NCBI RefSeq assembly: GCF_011045215.1
Contig: NZ_CP049201.1
Reading direction: 5' to 3' (one strand)
Origin: Escherichia coli
Lineage (GTDB): Bacteria; Pseudomonadota; Gammaproteobacteria; Enterobacterales; Enterobacteriaceae
Length of the DNA stretch: 64,000 nt
Each line of letters begins with the position of its first letter. The first letter of the stretch is position 1. This document shows, piece after piece, positions 1 through 57,736 of this stretch. A program made the translations under genes and the position numbers. A model generated the notes under the pieces. It made no database searches. It was not told the DNA's origin and was given only the letters and a program-made list of their open reading frames with translations.

Positions 1-60
1 GACAGTGGAAAGCAGCGAAAAAACGAGTTAAAAAGCGGTAGAAAAAGTTAAGTTCCCGGT

Positions 61-114
61 TGATCGAATGGATGCGAATCGCTGATCGAACTTCGATGCC
101 AATCCGTGATCGAA
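61..114. repeat. Three direct copies of TGATCGAA spaced 22 and 24 bp apart (iteron-like, each containing GATC)
   Basis: Seen directly: TGATCGAA at 61-68, 83-90 and 107-114, upstream of the first ICE ORF. Confidence 0.5.
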
Positions 115-186
115 TAGAGCGGAATACGCATTCCTGTCTGGGCACATGAACAGCTGGCTGCATGGGATGCCGCAGAGTTTGCTGCA

Positions 187-882
187 ATGTCGGATTTTAT
201 TACGGAACACTACTGGACGGGACAGGGCAGTATCAATGTGTACCGCATTGTGGGGACTGACCATCCACAGTATGCCGGAATGACCTGGCTGGAGCTGCTG
301 GAGCGCGGTAAACGCATGGACATCAATATCCCGTTACTCGAAAAGAATCCGGGATATTACACGCAGGCTGAGCAACAGCATGCCGGGATGAGTTTTGTCA
401 GCACGGATGGCATTCACTGGTATGTCAGTGCTGACGGTAATCACCGCAGCTGTCTGGCCCGCTTTCTGTTTCACCTGCAGGGGGAGGGGCGCACACAGCT
501 TCACAATGTGGCCCAGAGTGTTTATCACACGGACCGGGAGTTCCGGTCTGCCTGTCGGGAGATTCACAACCTGACAGAACCGTTGTCCCGGCATGGTGTG
601 TATCTTCGTCTGCAGACCCGGCGGCAGTGTGTTTCCCGCGAAGACCTGGCCTGCTGGAAAGTGGACCGTTTCAGAACAGAGGCGCAGCTGACAGTGGATG
701 ACGGTCATGTCGGCGGACATGACGGGCCACCGGTGTATAAGGCATTACTGCTGAATGCGGCAGATGCATGGCGGGAGGTGATGGTGTTACAGCGCAGACT
801 GGAGGTTCTGTCAGCGTCACCGGAGAACGATTTGCCGCGCTCATGGTGGTGGCGTCTTTTACAGAGAGGTACCCGGTCATGA
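187..882 (+). CDS. ICE-associated hypothetical protein (231 aa), translationally coupled to the coupling-protein gene
   Basis: Long ORF in the same orientation as the T4SS block; its stop overlaps the next start (ATGA at 879-882). Confidence 0.55.
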   Translation: MSDFITEHYWTGQGSINVYRIVGTDHPQYAGMTWLELLERGKRMDINIPLLEKNPGYYTQAEQQHAGMSFVSTDGIHWYVSADGNHRSCLARFLFHLQGEGRTQLHNVAQSVYHTDREFRSACREIHNLTEPLSRHGVYLRLQTRRQCVSREDLACWKVDRFRTEAQLTVDDGHVGGHDGPPVYKALLLNAADAWREVMVLQRRLEVLSASPENDLPRSWWWRLLQRGTRS

Positions 883-2975
883 GTAACCGTTATGTGATTG
901 AGGCCCTGCTGCGACCGGCGGTGGAGCTGAACACTGCCGTGGTGGCGGCAACGGCGGCCGGTGTCTGTGTGACAGCGCCCTGGGCGGTGGCGCTGGCCCC
1001 CTCTGTCAGTTATGCCACTGCCGCCGGTTTTGGCGTTCTGGCAGCGGTCCGTTTCCGCCAGGGAATGAAGGTCATCCGCTACCGTCGCAATCTGCGGCGT
1101 CTGCCCCGTTATGTGATGAGTACCCGGCAGATACCCGTGAGCCGTCAGCGCCTTTTTCTGGGGCGGGGATTTCGCTGGACACAGAAACACACCCAGCGCC
1201 TTCAGGATACGCTGCGCCCGGAGGTGGCCAGGTACCTTCAGCCGGGCTGGCTGTACCGGATGGCCCGTCAGCTTGAGCTGAAAACGGAGCATACCGTCCC
1301 CCGTCTGGGCGCACTTTTGCGTCAGGACTCTCCGCTGAATCCGGTACGCCCCCTGCCGCCGGTGGGCGGGAATCCGGCACTGCATGGTATTGAACCGGAT
1401 GAACAGGATGTGACGCTGGCGCTGGGAGAGAGGGTGGGACACACCATTGTTTATGGTACCACCCGTGTCGGTAAAACCCGGCTGGCAGAGCTGCTGGTCA
1501 CACAGGATATCCGCCGGGGAGAGGTCACCATTGTCTTTGACCCCAAAGGGGATGCTGACCTGTTGCTGCGTGTATGGGCAGAAGCACACCGTGCCGGCAG
1601 GGGCGATGAGCTGTATATCTTTCATCTGGGCTGGCCGGAAATCTCTGCGCGTTATAACGCAGTGGGGCGTTTTGGCCGGGTATCGGAGGTGGCCACCCGT
1701 GTGGCGGGACAGTTGTCCGGTGAAGGCAACAGTGCTGCTTTCCGGGAGTTTGCCTGGCGTTTTGTCAATATCATTGCCCGCGCCCTGGTGGCGCTGGGAG
1801 AACGCCCGGATTACACGCTGATTATGCGCTATGTGAATAATATTGCTGACCTCTATATTCGTTATGCCGGAAAGGTGGTCAGTGAACAGATGCCGGAACT
1901 GGAAAGCGCCATTCTGAATAACATGAATGTGCTGGGTGAAGATGATGTGCCCAGGACCATGCAGAACCAGCCGGATGCTGTGCGTATCTGGGCTATTGAG
2001 GTGGCGCTCAGCAGTGACGCCGGGAAGAAACTCTATGACCCGATACTGGATGGTCTTCGAAGTGCGGTACGTTATGACCGTACTTATTTTGACAAAATTG
2101 TGGCCTCCCTGCTGCCGTTGCTGGAAAAACTGACCACAGGAAAGACGGCAGAGCTGCTGGCACCGGACTACCTGGATATGAGTGATACCCGTCCCGTGTT
2201 TGACTGGGAACAGGTGATACGTAAAAAGGCGGTGGTGTATATCGGTCTTGATGCGCTCAGTGACAGTGAGGTGGCCAGTGCCGTGGGAAACTCCATGTTT
2301 GCAGACCTGGTGAGTGTGGCCGGACATATCTACAAACACGGTATGAATGCCGGATTGCCCGGTGCCGGGGAGAGTAAAAATGTGGTCAACCTGCACTGTG
2401 ATGAGTTCAACGAACTGATGGGCGATGAATTTATTCCGCTTATCAACAAGGGCGGTGGTGCCGGTATGCAGGTGACGGCGTATACCCAGACGTCTTCGGA
2501 TATTGAAGCCCGCATCGGTAATGCGGCTAAAACTGCCCAGGTACAGGGTAACTTCAATAACATGATTATGCTGCGCGTCAGGGAGAACCGGACGGCAGAG
2601 CTGCTGACCAGTCAGCTGCCTCAGGTGGAGATTTACACCAAAACACTGGTGTCGGGGCATCAGGATACCGCCGATGTGACGTCCGGCCAGGATTTCACCT
2701 CCAGCACCCAGGACCGCGTTGGCACAGTAAAGGTACCCTTACTGGAGCCGGCGGATATCGTCACCCTGCCAAAGGGGCAGGCATTTGCCCTGCTGGAAGG
2801 TGGACAGTTGTGGAAAATCCGGATGCCGCTGCCGGCGTCAGAGAAGGACGATGCGCTGATGCCGGAGAGTATTGCAAAAGTGGCTGAAGCCATGCGGCGT
2901 CATTACCACACCGGAGAGGGGTGGTGGCATGAAGCCCCGGCCGTGAATGTGCCGGAAGGAGACGGACATGGCTGA
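879..2975 (+). CDS. traD: Type IV coupling protein (TraD-like ATPase)
   Basis: 698-aa ORF with Walker A-like GTTRVGKT and overall TraD/TraG coupling-protein character; start moved to ATG 879, which overlaps the upstream stop. Confidence 0.8.
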   Translation: MSNRYVIEALLRPAVELNTAVVAATAAGVCVTAPWAVALAPSVSYATAAGFGVLAAVRFRQGMKVIRYRRNLRRLPRYVMSTRQIPVSRQRLFLGRGFRWTQKHTQRLQDTLRPEVARYLQPGWLYRMARQLELKTEHTVPRLGALLRQDSPLNPVRPLPPVGGNPALHGIEPDEQDVTLALGERVGHTIVYGTTRVGKTRLAELLVTQDIRRGEVTIVFDPKGDADLLLRVWAEAHRAGRGDELYIFHLGWPEISARYNAVGRFGRVSEVATRVAGQLSGEGNSAAFREFAWRFVNIIARALVALGERPDYTLIMRYVNNIADLYIRYAGKVVSEQMPELESAILNNMNVLGEDDVPRTMQNQPDAVRIWAIEVALSSDAGKKLYDPILDGLRSAVRYDRTYFDKIVASLLPLLEKLTTGKTAELLAPDYLDMSDTRPVFDWEQVIRKKAVVYIGLDALSDSEVASAVGNSMFADLVSVAGHIYKHGMNAGLPGAGESKNVVNLHCDEFNELMGDEFIPLINKGGGAGMQVTAYTQTSSDIEARIGNAAKTAQVQGNFNNMIMLRVRENRTAELLTSQLPQVEIYTKTLVSGHQDTADVTSGQDFTSSTQDRVGTVKVPLLEPADIVTLPKGQAFALLEGGQLWKIRMPLPASEKDDALMPESIAKVAEAMRRHYHTGEGWWHEAPAVNVPEGDGHG

Positions 2976-3720
2976 TCCCCGTCGTGATGTGGACCGTCCT
3001 GACGCCGCACAACCGCCACGCCGGCACGGGCTGCTGTATAACCTGCTGTGGGGGTGGCCGTGGACACTGGCCGGGATGGTACTCTCTTCCCTGTTGCTGA
3101 GCCTGCTGATTGAGTACGTGGGTATTACGTTTTTCTGGCCCGGACAGGGGGCCGGGCACAGTGAAGCGGTCATGAACACTGAGCTGGGCTGGTTATCCTC
3201 GGAATTCACCCGCAGTCTGCTGCTGTCCACGCCGTCAGTGACGGTGATGAAGTGGGTGTCCACGGCGTACCAGTGGCTGTTTGTGGACAGCGGATTTATG
3301 GCCTGGATGAAGCAGGGCGCTTCGGTCGATAACAGTGTGATACAGGAAGTGGATACTCTGGGCCGCTGGCTGGCGCATTACCTGCATGATTACCTGATGG
3401 CCACGGTATATGTGACGGTGGTGACGCTGGTCCGGGTGACGATTCTGGTGCTGTCAGTGCCCCTGTTTGTGATGGTGACTCTGGTGGCTGTGGTGGAAGG
3501 TCTGGGAAGACGTGACCTGCGCCGGTACGGTGCTGCGTATGAATCCAGTTTTGTTTATCACCATGCCAGAAAGTCCATTAAACCGGCGATATACATTCCC
3601 TGTATTCTTTATCTGTCCTGGCCCACGGCAGTATACCCGAACCTGCTGATATGGCCGGCGGCCATGCTTCTGGGGGGAGCTATCACCGTGACCATGGCGT
3701 CTTTCAAGAAATATTTATAA
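2968..3720 (+). CDS. ICE integral membrane protein
   Basis: ORF overlapping the traD stop (ATGGCTGA); several long hydrophobic segments; conserved position after traD in this ICE type (recalled). Confidence 0.6.
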   Translation: MADPRRDVDRPDAAQPPRRHGLLYNLLWGWPWTLAGMVLSSLLLSLLIEYVGITFFWPGQGAGHSEAVMNTELGWLSSEFTRSLLLSTPSVTVMKWVSTAYQWLFVDSGFMAWMKQGASVDNSVIQEVDTLGRWLAHYLHDYLMATVYVTVVTLVRVTILVLSVPLFVMVTLVAVVEGLGRRDLRRYGAAYESSFVYHHARKSIKPAIYIPCILYLSWPTAVYPNLLIWPAAMLLGGAITVTMASFKKYL

Positions 3721-9070: not shown

Positions 9071-11899
9071 ATGGGTTTCCCGCTGTTTAAAAAGAAAGTG
9101 AAACCGGCAATATCTGCAGAGACGACCGTGTCAGCAGAATGCGCGCAGCATTCCGGAGGCGATGACGCCGGTACTCCCCGTAACCAGACCCGCCCCGGGC
9201 GAATGACCCGTCAGGAGGAGGCGAAGATTTACCATGCGGGCCCGTCCATTATTGATTTTCTGCCCTGGGTGGAATATCTGGATGAAGAGCAGTGCCTGCT
9301 GCTGGATGACGGAGTGTCGGTCGGTGCCGTGTATGAGGTGACACCTGCGGCCACGGAAGGGCGCACGGCAGAGCGTCTTGAGCAAATCCGTGACACGGTG
9401 GAGGATGCCCTGCAGGACAGCTTTGATGAATACGACACTCACCCCTGGGTGGTGCAGTTCTTCTGTCAGGATGAAAATGATGTGGATGCGTATCTTGACC
9501 ATCTGAGGGGGTATGTGAAGCCCCGTGCGCAGCACACCGCTTTTACAGAGGCCTGGCTGGGCGAGATGGAACGGCATCTGCGGGGAATTGCCCGCCCGGA
9601 AGGGCTTTTCACGGACACGCTGGTGACCGGTCAGCCCTGGCGTGGTCAGCAGCGACGGACCCGGATGGTGGTGTACCGCCGTATCGGGAAAAACAGCCAT
9701 GACCCGATGCCGCCGGTGGCGATGCTGAACCAGGTGTGTGAACGCGTGGTGGGGGCGCTGGGCGGGGCGGGGGTGCGCTGTACCCGTCTGAACGGTCTGC
9801 AGGTACATGGCTGGCTGCTCAGACTGTTCAATCCCCGGCCGGCGTGGGTGGACAGGGACACACTGTACCGTCTGGCCACCCGTGCAGCGCCGCAGGAGAC
9901 ACCGGAGGGCATGATGCCGGTGATGACCGACTTTGCAGAAAGTCTCTGGTTCACGCCGCCGGTGTCGGATCCGGAAAACGGCGTGTGGTGGCTGGACGGA
10001 CTTCCGCATGCCGCCGTGGTGGTGGAGAAACTGCGTACACCCCCGGAGGCAGGGACGCTGACCGGTGAGAAGGCCCGGGGCGAAAAGACGGTGAATGCCC
10101 TGATGGATACGTTCCCTGAAGGCACCATGCTGTGCATGACCATTGTGGTACAGCCGCAGGACACACTCGAGGAGCGTTTTACCCGTCTGTCAAAAAATGC
10201 GGTCGGGGAAAACACAGAGTCCATTCGTGCCCGTCAGGATGTGGCCACCGTGAAGGAATATCTGGGGAACCGCCACAAACTTTACCGGGCGGGGATCAGT
10301 TTTCTGTTACGGGCTGAGGATATGGACAGCCTGAAGCGTAAGCGGGTGGCCCTGACCACGGCACTGCTGGGCGCCGGCCTGCAGCCGGTACGCCCGGAGT
10401 TTGATGTGGGGCCACTGAACAGCTGGCTGCGCGCGCTGCCCATGTGTTTTGACCCGGATACGGACAGGAAGCAGTGGTACACGCGTCTGATGTGGGTGCA
10501 GCATCTGGCTGGTCTCCTGCCGGTGACCGGGCGGGAGACGGGCACCGGTCACCCCGGATTCAGTTTCTTTAACCGGGGTGGGGATGTGCTGACCTTTGAT
10601 CCGCTGAATAAACTGGACCGCACCCAGAATGCGCACCTGCTGCTGTTTGGTCCGACCGGCGCCGGGAAATCCGCCACGCTGTGCTCCTCGCTGTCGCAGA
10701 TCATGGCCGTACATCGCCCCCGTCTTTTTATTGCTGAAGCCGGGAACTCGTTCGGGCTGCTGGCGGATTATTTTGAGAGCCTCGGGCTGAGCGTCAACAA
10801 AATCAGCGTGAAACCGGGCACCGGTGTCAGCCTGCCACCGTTTGCGGATGCACATCACCTGGTGGCACAGGGACAGACCCTGCAGGATGTGGATGAACAG
10901 ACACTGCCGGATATTGATGATGACACGCAGGACGTGAATGAGGACCAGCGCGATATCCTGGGAGAAATGGAGATCTCTGCCCGCATGATGATCACCGGGG
11001 GGGATCCGAAGGAAGAGGCGGCACTCAAACGGGCGGACAGGGCGATGATCCGTGAAGCCCTGCTGATGGCCACGCACACCACATACCGGGAGGGACGCCA
11101 GATGCTGCCGGCGGATTTGCAGTCGGCACTGTGGGAAATCTCCCGGGACAGTCAGCGAAATGAACTCCGGCGGACGAAAGCGGCAGAGATGGCGGAAGCG
11201 CTGGGGATGTTCACTCAGCCGGGCAGTTTTGAAGCGGAGCTGTTTAACCGGGAGGGGGCGCTGTGGCCGGAAGCGGATGTGACGCTGATTGACCTGGGGC
11301 ATCTGGCCCGTGAAGGGTATGAAGCCCAGATGGCGCTGACCATGGTGTCGATGACCAACATGATTAACAACATCGCGGAGCGTGACCAGTATCTGGGGCG
11401 GGACATTCTGTTTGCGGTGGATGAGGCACACATTGTGACGGTGAATCCGTTGCTGTCCCCGTACATGACCAAGGTGGTGAAAATGTGGCGCAAGCTGGGC
11501 GCCTGGCTGTGGCTGGCCACGCAGAACCTGAAAGACTATCCGAATGTCGCCGAGAAGATGCTGAATATGGCCGAGTGGTGGGTGTGCCTGACCATGCCGC
11601 CGGAGGAGGTGAACAGCATTGCTCGTTTTAAGGCACTGACAGAGGAACAGAAAGCGGTGCTGCTGTCAGCCGGCAAACTGTCGGGGTGTTACACGGAAGG
11701 GGTGGTGCTGGCGAAGAAGGTGGAGGCGCTGTTCCGGGTGGTGCCCCCGAGTATTTACCTGGCGCTGGGGATGACGGAGAAGGAGGAGAAGGCGGAGCGC
11801 CGGGCGTTAATGAAAGCGCATCAGTGCAGCGAGCTGGAAGCCGCATTTCATGTGGCCCGGAAGCTGGACAGGCTGCGTGGGCTGGCTGACGGGGAGTAA
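9071..11899 (+). CDS. traC: Conjugative transfer ATPase (VirB4/TraC-like)
   Basis: 942-aa ORF with Walker A LLLFGPTGAGKSATL; size and position typical of VirB4-family ATPases. Confidence 0.85.
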   Translation: MGFPLFKKKVKPAISAETTVSAECAQHSGGDDAGTPRNQTRPGRMTRQEEAKIYHAGPSIIDFLPWVEYLDEEQCLLLDDGVSVGAVYEVTPAATEGRTAERLEQIRDTVEDALQDSFDEYDTHPWVVQFFCQDENDVDAYLDHLRGYVKPRAQHTAFTEAWLGEMERHLRGIARPEGLFTDTLVTGQPWRGQQRRTRMVVYRRIGKNSHDPMPPVAMLNQVCERVVGALGGAGVRCTRLNGLQVHGWLLRLFNPRPAWVDRDTLYRLATRAAPQETPEGMMPVMTDFAESLWFTPPVSDPENGVWWLDGLPHAAVVVEKLRTPPEAGTLTGEKARGEKTVNALMDTFPEGTMLCMTIVVQPQDTLEERFTRLSKNAVGENTESIRARQDVATVKEYLGNRHKLYRAGISFLLRAEDMDSLKRKRVALTTALLGAGLQPVRPEFDVGPLNSWLRALPMCFDPDTDRKQWYTRLMWVQHLAGLLPVTGRETGTGHPGFSFFNRGGDVLTFDPLNKLDRTQNAHLLLFGPTGAGKSATLCSSLSQIMAVHRPRLFIAEAGNSFGLLADYFESLGLSVNKISVKPGTGVSLPPFADAHHLVAQGQTLQDVDEQTLPDIDDDTQDVNEDQRDILGEMEISARMMITGGDPKEEAALKRADRAMIREALLMATHTTYREGRQMLPADLQSALWEISRDSQRNELRRTKAAEMAEALGMFTQPGSFEAELFNREGALWPEADVTLIDLGHLAREGYEAQMALTMVSMTNMINNIAERDQYLGRDILFAVDEAHIVTVNPLLSPYMTKVVKMWRKLGAWLWLATQNLKDYPNVAEKMLNMAEWWVCLTMPPEEVNSIARFKALTEEQKAVLLSAGKLSGCYTEGVVLAKKVEALFRVVPPSIYLALGMTEKEEKAERRALMKAHQCSELEAAFHVARKLDRLRGLADGE

Positions 11900-11903
11900 G
11901 ACG

Positions 11904-12284
11904 ATGCTGTGCCTGAAATATCCGGAGCCGGAAGAGGTGTCACAGGGGCATCCTGCCGGAAGTGTGTTTGTGCTGCCGCCACAGGGGCAGCCCGGTGCCA
12001 GCCGTGCCACCCGGGATAATCTTGAGCGTCTGCGCGGACATCTGCAGAAGCAACTGGGGCTGGTGACGCGTATCTGTTGCCAGCCTCAGCGTGTGGGGGT
12101 GAACAGCAGCGTGGCGGTGGCACTGGAAGGGGGGACGGGGCAAAAGGTGCATCTTCTGCTGACGGTAAGTGGTCATGAGGGCTGGCCGTCGGAGGAGGAG
12201 TATGCGCATCCCCGCTGGTATATCCCGGTGACCGATGCTGCTGATTTGTGTTATCTGCTGCTGTGGCTGGCTGAGTTACAGTGA
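11904..12284 (+). CDS. Hypothetical protein (126 aa) following the ATPase gene
   Basis: ATG 5 bp after the traC stop; same orientation; no recognisable motif. Confidence 0.4.
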   Translation: MLCLKYPEPEEVSQGHPAGSVFVLPPQGQPGASRATRDNLERLRGHLQKQLGLVTRICCQPQRVGVNSSVAVALEGGTGQKVHLLLTVSGHEGWPSEEEYAHPRWYIPVTDAADLCYLLLWLAELQ

Positions 12285-12383
12285 GGGGATATGTGCACTG
12301 ATTTTAATGCTGCTCCGGGGCTCGCACTGACCGGGATGACAGTGATATATGGCGTATTGCAGATTAAGTAAAGAGGATGAAGT

Positions 12384-12626
12384 ATGAACTCTGGTTATGA
12401 TTTACCGGGAGGGTTGGGGCCGGTAAGGGAACGGATAATCGATGACCCATGGTTTTTTCTGTCTGTCGCACTGATTCTGTTGGTCGTGGTATATGTCGTG
12501 TCACTGGGGCTGAAAGAAGTCATTTTCAGTGTCAGAAAGGGTAAAGGGAAGAGAAATATGCTCAGGAAGGCGTACCGCTCCCGGGGCTCTGCTGAGGTGC
12601 GGGGGATGAAAAAGTCTGAGAAATGA
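12384..12626 (+). CDS. Small membrane protein (80 aa)
   Basis: ORF with a central hydrophobic helix (FFLSVALILLVVVYVVSLGL), followed by a terminator. Confidence 0.4.
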   Translation: MNSGYDLPGGLGPVRERIIDDPWFFLSVALILLVVVYVVSLGLKEVIFSVRKGKGKRNMLRKAYRSRGSAEVRGMKKSEK

Positions 12627-20772: not shown

Positions 20773-20917
20773 ATAATTAATTTGTATCTACAGAATATTA
20801 ATGCTCAGGCTGGTTAACCCCGGCCTTTTTATTTTATATACAGACGTTCCTGTGAGACTATTGACATATAAAAGCCCGTCTTGCTAATCTTTTCCCGCTT
20901 TAATGTCGCTGTATGCG

Positions 20918-21102
20918 ACCATCCAAATCCCCAGTAGTCTGAGAGGGGAGCCTTCGGGCGGCTACCAGCCAATGCTTTAACGATCTGAGAGAAGCGCCTT
21001 CGGGTGATCGTAATGTTCTCGTAGCCTGGAAGAGAACGCCTTACGTGGCGGTACATCCGTTTAACCTCTGGGAACGGATATCACGGAACCGTGATTGAGG
21101 TC
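20918..21102 (+). repeat. Copy A of a ~185-bp structured direct repeat (four predicted hairpins, two with CUUCGG loops)
   Basis: Seen directly: about 88% identical to 23232..23416; contains GAGCC-UUCG-GGC and GCGCC-UUCG-GGUG hairpins plus a 7-bp stem ATCCGTT/AACGGAT. Confidence 0.8.
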
Positions 21103-21517: not shown

Positions 21518-21762
21518 CGACCGTTCTTCTTGCAGAATTTTATTGTTTTTTAAGGAGTTTTATGTAGTGAGATGCCGAACCGGCGATACCACTTATTAGG
21601 GGTGGTATCGGGGGCGACCTGGAAACAGGTACAGCGAATGCTGCAGTCGGTGTGCAACACCGGTTTGTTACCCCTCAATACCTAAACAGTCTGCGCTACC
21701 CTGGCGCTCAGGCACTCATTACCCGAAGGATCGCAACGCTTAACCGTGTCGCCAGGGAGAAT

Positions 21763-23109: not shown

Positions 23110-23155
23110 CTTGACATCCATCTTTTGTGCCTTAAAAATATACAGGCTAACTTTG

Positions 23156-23416
23156 TTACCTTCGGGTGACCATCCAATGTTTCGGTAGTCTGAGAGAAAC
23201 GCCTTCGGGTGACTACAGTTATCTTCGGATAACCATCCAAATCCCCGGTAGTCTGAGAGGGGAGCCTTCGGGCGACTACCAGCCAATGCTTTGACGATCT
23301 GAGAAAAGCGCCTTCGGGTGATCGTAATGTCTCCGTAGCCTGAAAGGGGACGCCTTAGAGGGTGGTACATCCGTTTAACCTCTGGAAACGGATATCACGG
23401 AACAGTGATCGAGGTC
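23156..23416 (+). repeat. Copy B of the ~185-bp structured direct repeat (23232..23416) plus an extra partial unit (23156..23231)
   Basis: Seen directly: aligns with 20918..21102 over its full length with scattered substitutions; the upstream partial duplication repeats the CCATCCAA...GGTAGTCTGAGAG...GCCTTCGGGTG unit. Confidence 0.8.
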
Positions 23417-47762: not shown

Positions 47763-49199
47763 TTACTGTTCGCTTTCATCAGTATAGCGTTTTGCTTTGT
47801 AAGCCGGGTGCATCAGATTCTGTACGGAGAAAATATCGTCAAGTTCCGCTTCAGTCAACAGACCGCGTTCCAGAACGACTTCACGTACACTCTTACCGGT
47901 TTCGGCACAGATTTTACCCACGATGTCACCGTTGTGGTGACCGATGAACGGGTTCAGGTAAGTAACGATACCGATAGAGTTGTAAACGTAACCTTCGCAC
48001 ACTTCTTTGTTAGCAGTGATGCCGTTAATGCATTTTTCCAGCAGGTTGTAGCAAGCGTTGGTCAGAATGTGAACGGATTCGAACATAGCCTGGCCAATGA
48101 CCGGCTCCATAACGTTCAACTGCAGCTGACCTGCTTCTGCTGCCATGGTAACAGTGGTGTCGTTACCGATGACTTTGAAGCATACCTGGTTAACCACTTC
48201 CGGAACAACCGGGTTTACTTTAGCTGGCATGATGGAAGAGCCCGCCTGCAGTTCCGGCAGGTTGATCTCGTTCAGGCCGGCACGTGGACCAGAAGAGAGC
48301 AAGCGCAGGTCGTTACAGATTTTGGACATCTTCACAGCCAGGCGTTTCAGCGCGCCGTGAACCATAACATAAGCGCCGCAGTCTGAGGTCGCTTCGATCA
48401 GGTCTTCAGCCGGTACGCATGGGAAGCCAGTGACTTCAGCCAGTTTTTTCACTGCCAGCGGAGAGTACTCTTTCGGCGTGTTCAGACCAGTACCGATTGC
48501 TGTTGCACCAAGGTTAACTTCCAGCAGCAGTTCAGCGGTACGTTGGATATTTTTCACTTCTTCTTTCAGCAGGATGCTGAAAGCGCGGAATTCCTGACCG
48601 AGGGTCATCGGTACTGCGTCCTGCAGCTGGGTACGACCCATTTTCAGGATGTCCTGGAATTCGACAGCTTTACGTTCAAAGCCTTCACGCAGTTGGTTAA
48701 TCGCATCTACCAGCTTAATCAGGGAAGAGTAAACTGCGATACGGAAACCGGTCGGGTAGGCGTCGTTAGTGGACTGACATTTGTTAACATGGTCGTTCGG
48801 GTTCAGGTACTGATATTCACCTTTCTGGTGACCCATCAGTTCCAGACCGATATTGGCCAGCACTTCGTTGGTGTTCATGTTTACGGAAGTACCTGCGCCG
48901 CCCTGGTAGACGTCTACCGGGAACTGATCCATGCATTTTCCGTTGTTCAGGACTTCATCACATGCGGCAATGATGGCATTCGCTACACTTTTAGGAATGG
49001 TTTGCAGCTCTTTGTTTGCCATAGCTGCGGCTTTTTTAACCATTACCATACCGCGAACAAATTCAGGAATATCACTGATTTTGTTGTTGCTGATATAGAA
49101 GTTTTCAATCGCTCTCAGAGTGTGAACACCATAGTAGGCATCAGCTGGAACTTCCCTGGTACCCAACAGATCTTCTTCGATACGAATGTTGTTTGACAT
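47763..49199 (-). CDS. aspA: Aspartate ammonia-lyase
   Basis: Sequence from [24 protein letters not shown] with the [10 protein letters not shown] lyase signature; start trimmed to match AspA. Confidence 0.9.
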
Positions 49200-57561: not shown

Positions 57562-57736
57562 GCAATAACGGTACGACAGCTGTGTCGTGCCGTTTGTTTT
57601 TTCTGCGATAGTCACAAAGGTAATAGTTGAAATTCCCCTGCCACCTGGCAAAATATCCGTTCAACCATCAGCTTTGCAGGACGACCTGCAAACGCGTCTT
57701 TTCACCGGGGACGGCCCCAATTCTCCGGAGCCTGAT

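Follow-up and report, generated by a model that had tools for sequence, protein, structure and literature searches.

Insertion sequences of the IS21 family have terminal inverted repeats (TIRs) built of multiple direct repeats (L1/L2 and R1/R2), which lie 23 bp apart (PMC10122671). A characterised member is IS5376, for which a 3.4 Å cryo-EM structure is available together with biochemistry (PMC10122671). In each IS5376 repeat, two conserved blocks are separated by one turn of DNA and are read through the major groove by HTH-1 and HTH-2 of the transposase IstA, and integration needs two complete repeats (PMC10122671). In the IstA tetramer, catalytic subunits occupy R1, beside the terminal CA, while structural subunits occupy R2, and the tetramer synapses two bent, intertwined ends; strand transfer requires the AAA+ protein IstB (PMC10122671).

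The DNA analysed here is a stretch of 64,000 nucleotides from Escherichia coli (NCBI RefSeq assembly GCF_011045215.1, contig NZ_CP049201.1), which we refer to as the window. Its first 130 bp were 100% identical to positions 3001–3130 of two sequences (L002 and L003), both of which hold a complete 2638-bp copy of ISSso4. Further 100% matches to window 1–130 were found in several plasmids and chromosomes, as the 3’ end of an “IS21-like element ISSso4”, and matches to this ISSso4 end occurred in 2,363 E. coli records and in 391 plasmids from ten genera. It is almost certain that window 1–130 is the right TIR region of ISSso4, inserted into an ICE gene upstream of traD. The features of the region are listed in Table 1.

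No more than the final 130 bp of the IS fall within the window; the left end and the target duplication of this particular insertion lie outside it. The complete copies (L002 and L003) encode IstA (511 aa) and IstB (251 aa) between TG...CA termini. The left terminus reads TGCAAAATGG and the right terminus, ...ACGCA, falls at window position 130. A direct target duplication borders each copy (AGTGTGG in L002 and AATAA in L003). IstA of the full element scored 287 bits on NCBIfam NF033546 (cut-off 160) and IstB scored 252 bits on NF038214 (cut-off 200). These scores were obtained from identical full copies, as both genes lie outside the window except for the C-terminus of IstB. Window 1–130 shows every defining property of an IS21-family end that is open to a test; the feature is of an already known kind and the insertion is biologically ordinary.

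To the right, the limit of the element was read from an alignment of the window with seven independent ISSso4 copies. All eight sequences share the stretch up to ...GGAATACGCA (...ACGCA, position 130) and are unrelated beyond it, which places the junction between IS and ICE at 130/131. Three BLAST matches (H21–H23) seemed to extend the IS to 144–145. In the alignment the extra bases turned out to be flanking DNA that resembles the window by chance, and 130 was retained as the boundary. The ICE side gave the same position: when window 1–3000 was compared by BLAST with 5,426 complete E. coli genomes, about 100 genomes covered most of the query, and all of these matches began at 130/131. The specific combination of IS and ICE was absent from the 5,426 complete genomes, and the 52-nt junction had no exact match in species-representative genome contigs. 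It was present in an independent short-read assembly (Logan SRR11014969_279), in a contig that breaks 30 nt into the IS; such a break is expected in short-read assembly because the IS is a multicopy repeat. The window start is probably also an assembly break within the multicopy IS, and the upstream half of the ICE is to be sought on another contig.

Table 1. Features at the junction of ISSso4 and the ICE, and repeat cores of distant relatives. Coordinates are those of the window.
Feature	Coordinates	Strand	Sequence or basis
Right end of ISSso4 (IS21 family), last 130 bp; rest beyond the window start	1–130	+	Sequence identity
istB (helper AAA+ ATPase), last 9 codons and stop	2–31	+	TVESSEKTS*, identical to the annotated ISSso4 IstB C-terminus
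Inner conserved block, adjoining the repeat array	47–59	+	GTTAAGTTCCCGG
Repeat unit R3, innermost	59–80	+	GTTGATCGAATGGATGCGAATC; GATC-anchored alignment, eight ISSso4 units
Repeat unit R2	81–104	+	GCTGATCGAACTTCGATGCCAATC; GATC-anchored alignment
Repeat unit R1, terminal, ends at the CA-3’ terminus of the IS	105–130	+	CGTGATCGAATAGAGCGGAATACGCA
5’-truncated ICE gene, homologue of a 262-aa hypothetical protein directly upstream of traD	131–882	+	Alignment with E. coli C5 gene (L001 5964–6752)
traD, type IV coupling protein, 698 aa	879–2975	+	98.8% identical to annotated E. coli C5 traD
ISEc12 repeat core			GAGATCAC
ISAs28 repeat core			CCGATCAC
IS408 and ISBmu3 repeat core			GTGATCA
Pseudomonas element repeat core			ACTTGGACAC
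Roseomonas element repeat core			AAGTCGGC
Pseudosulfitobacter element repeat core			GGGCAG / ATTTCA

From position 131 onwards the window contains an ICE of the PFGI-1/ICEclc type with TIGR037xx genes. It is integrated at tRNA-Phe (window 43423–43498, minus strand), beside the E. coli genes dicD-dsbD-cutA-dcuA-aspA, which marks the boundary between ICE and chromosome. A related ICE is present at the same tRNA-Phe site in E. coli RM11911, where genes for a tyrosine recombinase, a TraI-domain protein and a UvrD-helicase lie just inside the boundary. Several structured RNA motifs in the window scored above the Rfam gathering score. Within the ICE these are two STAXI motifs (20904–21057 and 23154–23279, plus strand; 109.7 and 85.8 bits) and one EFASI motif (21564–21721, plus strand; 55.0 bits), which are structured motifs without an established function. 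The chromosomal part contains a Guanidine-II (mini-ykkC) riboswitch aptamer (57673–57719, plus strand; 49.3 bits, gathering score 32).

Comparison with C5 and RM11911 showed that the IS entered after codon 12 of the 262-aa gene (...GCA AAT G/TT CCT GTC TGG..., the slash marking the point of entry). The insertion deprived the gene of its first 12 codons, including the start codon, and of the signals upstream, including the ribosome-binding site; the longest remaining ORF starts at ATG 187 and encodes 231 aa. The 262-aa protein matched no Pfam or NCBIfam family; a ParB/Srx-like DGxHR motif picked out by eye (SADGNHRS) remained unsupported. The truncated gene and traD overlap in ATGA (879–882), which holds the stop of the former and the start of the latter, and Pfam TraG-D_C was found on a product identical to that of the window traD. 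In intact relatives the interrupted gene is approximately the eighth in a run of overlapping genes, in the order PilL-domain, Tat-signal, TIGR03759, lytic transglycosylase, ICE protein, restriction endonuclease, two hypotheticals and traD. Because this run begins approximately 4.4 kb upstream, the original prediction was mistaken in placing the repeats at the head of the coupling-protein operon, whose natural start lies elsewhere. The IS cuts the transfer operon in two just before the coupling-protein gene, and the ICE is therefore probably impaired for self-transfer or reliant on read-through from the IS.

Two related ICE copies showed peculiarities of their own. In RM11911 the homologues of the interrupted gene (L011 8964–9752) and of the TIGR03747 gene (11870–12594) are annotated as frameshifted pseudogenes, and decay of this ICE family seems to be under way in several E. 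coli lineages. In E. coli C5 (L001, NZ_CP010122.1; 1–5458) the ICE genes upstream of traD are present twice, head-to-head, namely those for TIGR03759, the transglycosylase, the ICE protein and the restriction endonuclease. The centre is occupied by two truncated Tat-signal genes (2055–2519 on the minus strand and 2525–2980 on the plus strand), and the arrangement resembles an inverted duplication or a pair of ICE copies that abut each other.

Within the IS end, the motif TGATCGAA occurs on the plus strand at 61–68, 83–90 and 107–114, with start-to-start distances of 22 and 24 bp, and forms the core of R3, R2 and R1, respectively. One GATC lies inside each core (62–65, 84–87 and 108–111). The repeat unit exceeds 8 bp: in a repeat search 71–90 paired with 95–114, with 85% identity over 20 nt. 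Second half-sites are present in R3 (ATGCGAA, 72–78) and in R2 (ATGCCAA, 96–102), approximately one helical turn from the GATC half-sites; on the other strand these read TTGGCAT. TGATCGAA is complementary to the TTCGATCA half-site and makes up one of the two half-sites of a 22–26 bp unit, TTGGCAT ... TCGATCA. In five of the eight aligned copies the core of R2 reads TGATCGGA, and the perfect triple 8-mer is limited to the ISSso4 variant in the window.

At the opposite end of ISSso4 the same unit is found inverted. The right end has three units and the left end five, perhaps six, and their distances from the termini mirror each other: the GATC cores lie 21, 44, 68, 91 and 113 bp from the left terminus and 20, 44 and 66 bp from the right terminus. 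The eight GATC-anchored units read (A/G)TTTGGCAT-N5-(A/T)TCGATCA, except for the terminal units, which start with TGCAAAATGGCAT (left) and TGCGTATTCCGCT (right). The inner conserved block has a similar counterpart at the other end (reverse complement of the right end CCGGGAACTTAACTTTTT, left end CCGGGAATTAACTCTTTT), which is inverted and lies inside the left-end array. Just inward of the repeat arrays, both ends have in common the inverted sequence CCGGGAA(T/C)TTAACT(C)TTTT (window 47–59; approximately 142–160 of the IS in L002). The block was kept in the aligned copies, with a 1-base deletion in that of E. albertii. A host-factor site, an extra IstA site and a promoter element are possibilities for its role.

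An ISSso4 relative on the Salmonella plasmid pLG26p2 (L004), 86% identical, has 9 bp (TGCCAATCC) missing between R2 and R1, and this deletion takes out the second half-site of R2 (L004 3199–3320). Its left terminus is also different (TGAACGCTCTC..., L004 approximately 735). The copy may be defective or diverged, and because of the possible defect it was left out of the definition of the spacing.

Sequence identity, the boundary, the mirrored arrays and the family membership of IstA and IstB were observed directly, and homology with IS5376 suggests how such an end could work. The TGATCGAA motifs would be the GATC-containing half-sites of the three direct-repeat units R3, R2 and R1, each unit being bound by one IstA monomer through two N-terminal HTH domains. 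R1 would be occupied by catalytic IstA subunits, with cleavage at the CA-3’ end (window 130), and R2 by structural subunits, the two ends being synapsed in an IstA tetramer. The phasing of approximately 23 bp would align successive sites along the same face of the helix and may favour a supercoiled synapse. By this analogy the IstA of ISSso4 is predicted to bind R1–R3 in an IS5376-like manner; the structural model comprises two plus two units, against three right and five left units in ISSso4.

A chance occurrence of a short word can practically be dismissed as the origin of the cluster. The total of four TGATCGAA copies in the 64-kb window, the fourth being on the minus strand at 48393–48400, is not unusual: dinucleotide shuffles gave an expectation of 2.13 copies per window, and 18 of 100 shuffles reached four. 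However, three copies on the same strand within 54 bp are expected only about 3e-6 times per window, the similarity of the units runs past the 8-mer, and the array is mirrored at the opposite end of the IS and kept across copies and relatives. The three phased, GATC-containing repeats that had been pointed out are therefore real. It is extremely improbable that they are iteron-like sites for an ICE regulator of the traD/T4SS operon, as the original prediction had it. They do form phased repeats directly upstream of the first ICE ORF of the window, but they are present identically in ISSso4 copies whose plasmid and chromosomal surroundings are unrelated. Nor are they conserved in related ICEs, a result that the original prediction had itself named as its refutation: C5, RM11911 and the approximately 100 matching genomes align only from 130/131; the inspected C5 and RM11911 copies consist of uninterrupted coding sequence, without repeats at the junction point, and the intact operon runs upstream through overlapping genes to the PilL-domain gene. 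The proposed single feature at 55–190 joins IS DNA (to 130) with unrelated ICE DNA (from 131). What could be retained is the idea of a protein-binding array phased at about two helical turns, although with sites that by homology belong to a transposase (PMC10122671) and not to an ICE regulator. The array lacks the testable properties of ICE iterons or of an operon-head regulatory array. The finding is mainly a correction and says nothing about ICE regulation.

Given that the array is an IS end, two further readings concern its function. With GATC in every IstA half-site, recognition of the ends might be Dam-sensitive, an idea of the original prediction that can be transferred to a transposase, and transposition of ISSso4-type elements might be coupled to replication fork passage, through hemimethylated ends; we regard this as possible but doubtful. 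Of the 13 GATC sites in the 2638-bp element, eight are clustered in 183 terminal bp, where 0.7 are expected; each unit has one, and none of the eight aligned copies departs from GATCG in any of the three right-end cores. The units of ISEc12 and ISAs28 each carry GATC as well, and the hosts of these elements (enterobacteria and Aeromonas) have Dam. An influence of methylation on the binding of IstA is also plausible on physical grounds. In addition, the IstA of IS5376 reads its blocks via the major groove, where N6-methyladenine protrudes, and transposition of IS10, IS50 and IS903 is under the control of Dam methylation. On the other hand, IS408 and ISBmu3 share the TGATCA core in all their units and come from Burkholderia, which to our knowledge are without Dam, so that the specificity of IstA alone suffices to account for the GATC. 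In this small sample GATC cores were present in ISSso4, ISEc12, ISAs28, IS408 and ISBmu3 and absent from the Pseudomonas and Roseomonas elements, and the Pseudosulfitobacter element had GATC only in some spacers. It is unlikely that in Dam-positive enterobacteria the methylation state gates IstA binding and synapsis via the GATC in all eight putative units. If it did, IS21-family transposition would be tied to replication or to the conjugative entry of unmethylated or single-stranded DNA. No relevant paper on Dam control of IS21-family transposition was found in the literature searched, and such gating is unreported for the family. The other reading, which seems rather improbable to us, is that the IS end drives transcription of traD, by read-through from istAB or from an outward promoter element, with the array at the head of a new transcription unit. 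Since istB and traD are co-directional and no terminator-like site was found between the istB stop (31) and 832, read-through from istAB could, judged from the sequence, transcribe traD; for an outward promoter element there is a parallel in IS21, whose right TIR carries a -35 box (PMC10122671). No sigma-70-like promoter was predicted in window 1–1000, however, and a scan of the same region at the Rfam gathering score detected no RNA family. In addition, the start of traD overlaps the stop of the cut gene, and translational coupling into traD is probably weakened because the cut gene is left without a start codon and ribosome-binding site of its own.

In the papers found to mention ISSso4, it is no more than an entry in inventories. 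The element was compared with described relatives and systems. In distant relatives with an IstA 42–47% identical to that of ISSso4 (ISEc12, ISAs28, IS408, ISBmu3 and elements of Pseudomonas, Roseomonas and Pseudosulfitobacter), phased arrays were present at both ends in all cases, with clade-specific cores (Table 1). The terminal TGCGTATTCCG of R1 in ISSso4, read inward, also occurs in ISEc12, IS408 and the Roseomonas relative.

ISSso4 resembles IS21 and IS5376 in its TG...CA termini, in the istA-istB operon that ends just inside the right end, in direct repeats of approximately 23 bp that are inverted between the ends and have two blocks about one turn apart in each unit, and in the target duplications around full copies. 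It differs in the number of units, with three at the right end and five (perhaps six) at the left instead of two and two, and has cores of the type TCGATCA/TTGGCAT where IS5376 has the GC-rich CS1/CS2; its IstA is longer (511 aa versus about 400 aa). With IS10, IS50 and IS903 it has in common a GATC within the sequence recognised by the transposase, which for ISSso4 is predicted by homology. Dam control has been demonstrated for those three elements. GATC of the ISSso4 type is also found in relatives from presumed Dam-less hosts. Plasmid iterons, like the array described here, are directly repeated protein-binding units of approximately 22 bp in helix phase, but they are bound by a Rep initiator beside an origin. 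The array in the window has neither a rep gene nor an origin beside it; it is part of a transposable element, whose opposite end carries its mirror image. Finally, the ends of phage Mu and Tn7 also have several phased sites per end (for MuA and TnsB), which are read by tandem HTH domains, and both systems use an AAA+ helper (MuB and TnsC), as ISSso4 has IstB (PMC10122671). They differ from ISSso4 in transposase family and element size, and Mu adds an enhancer and host factors.
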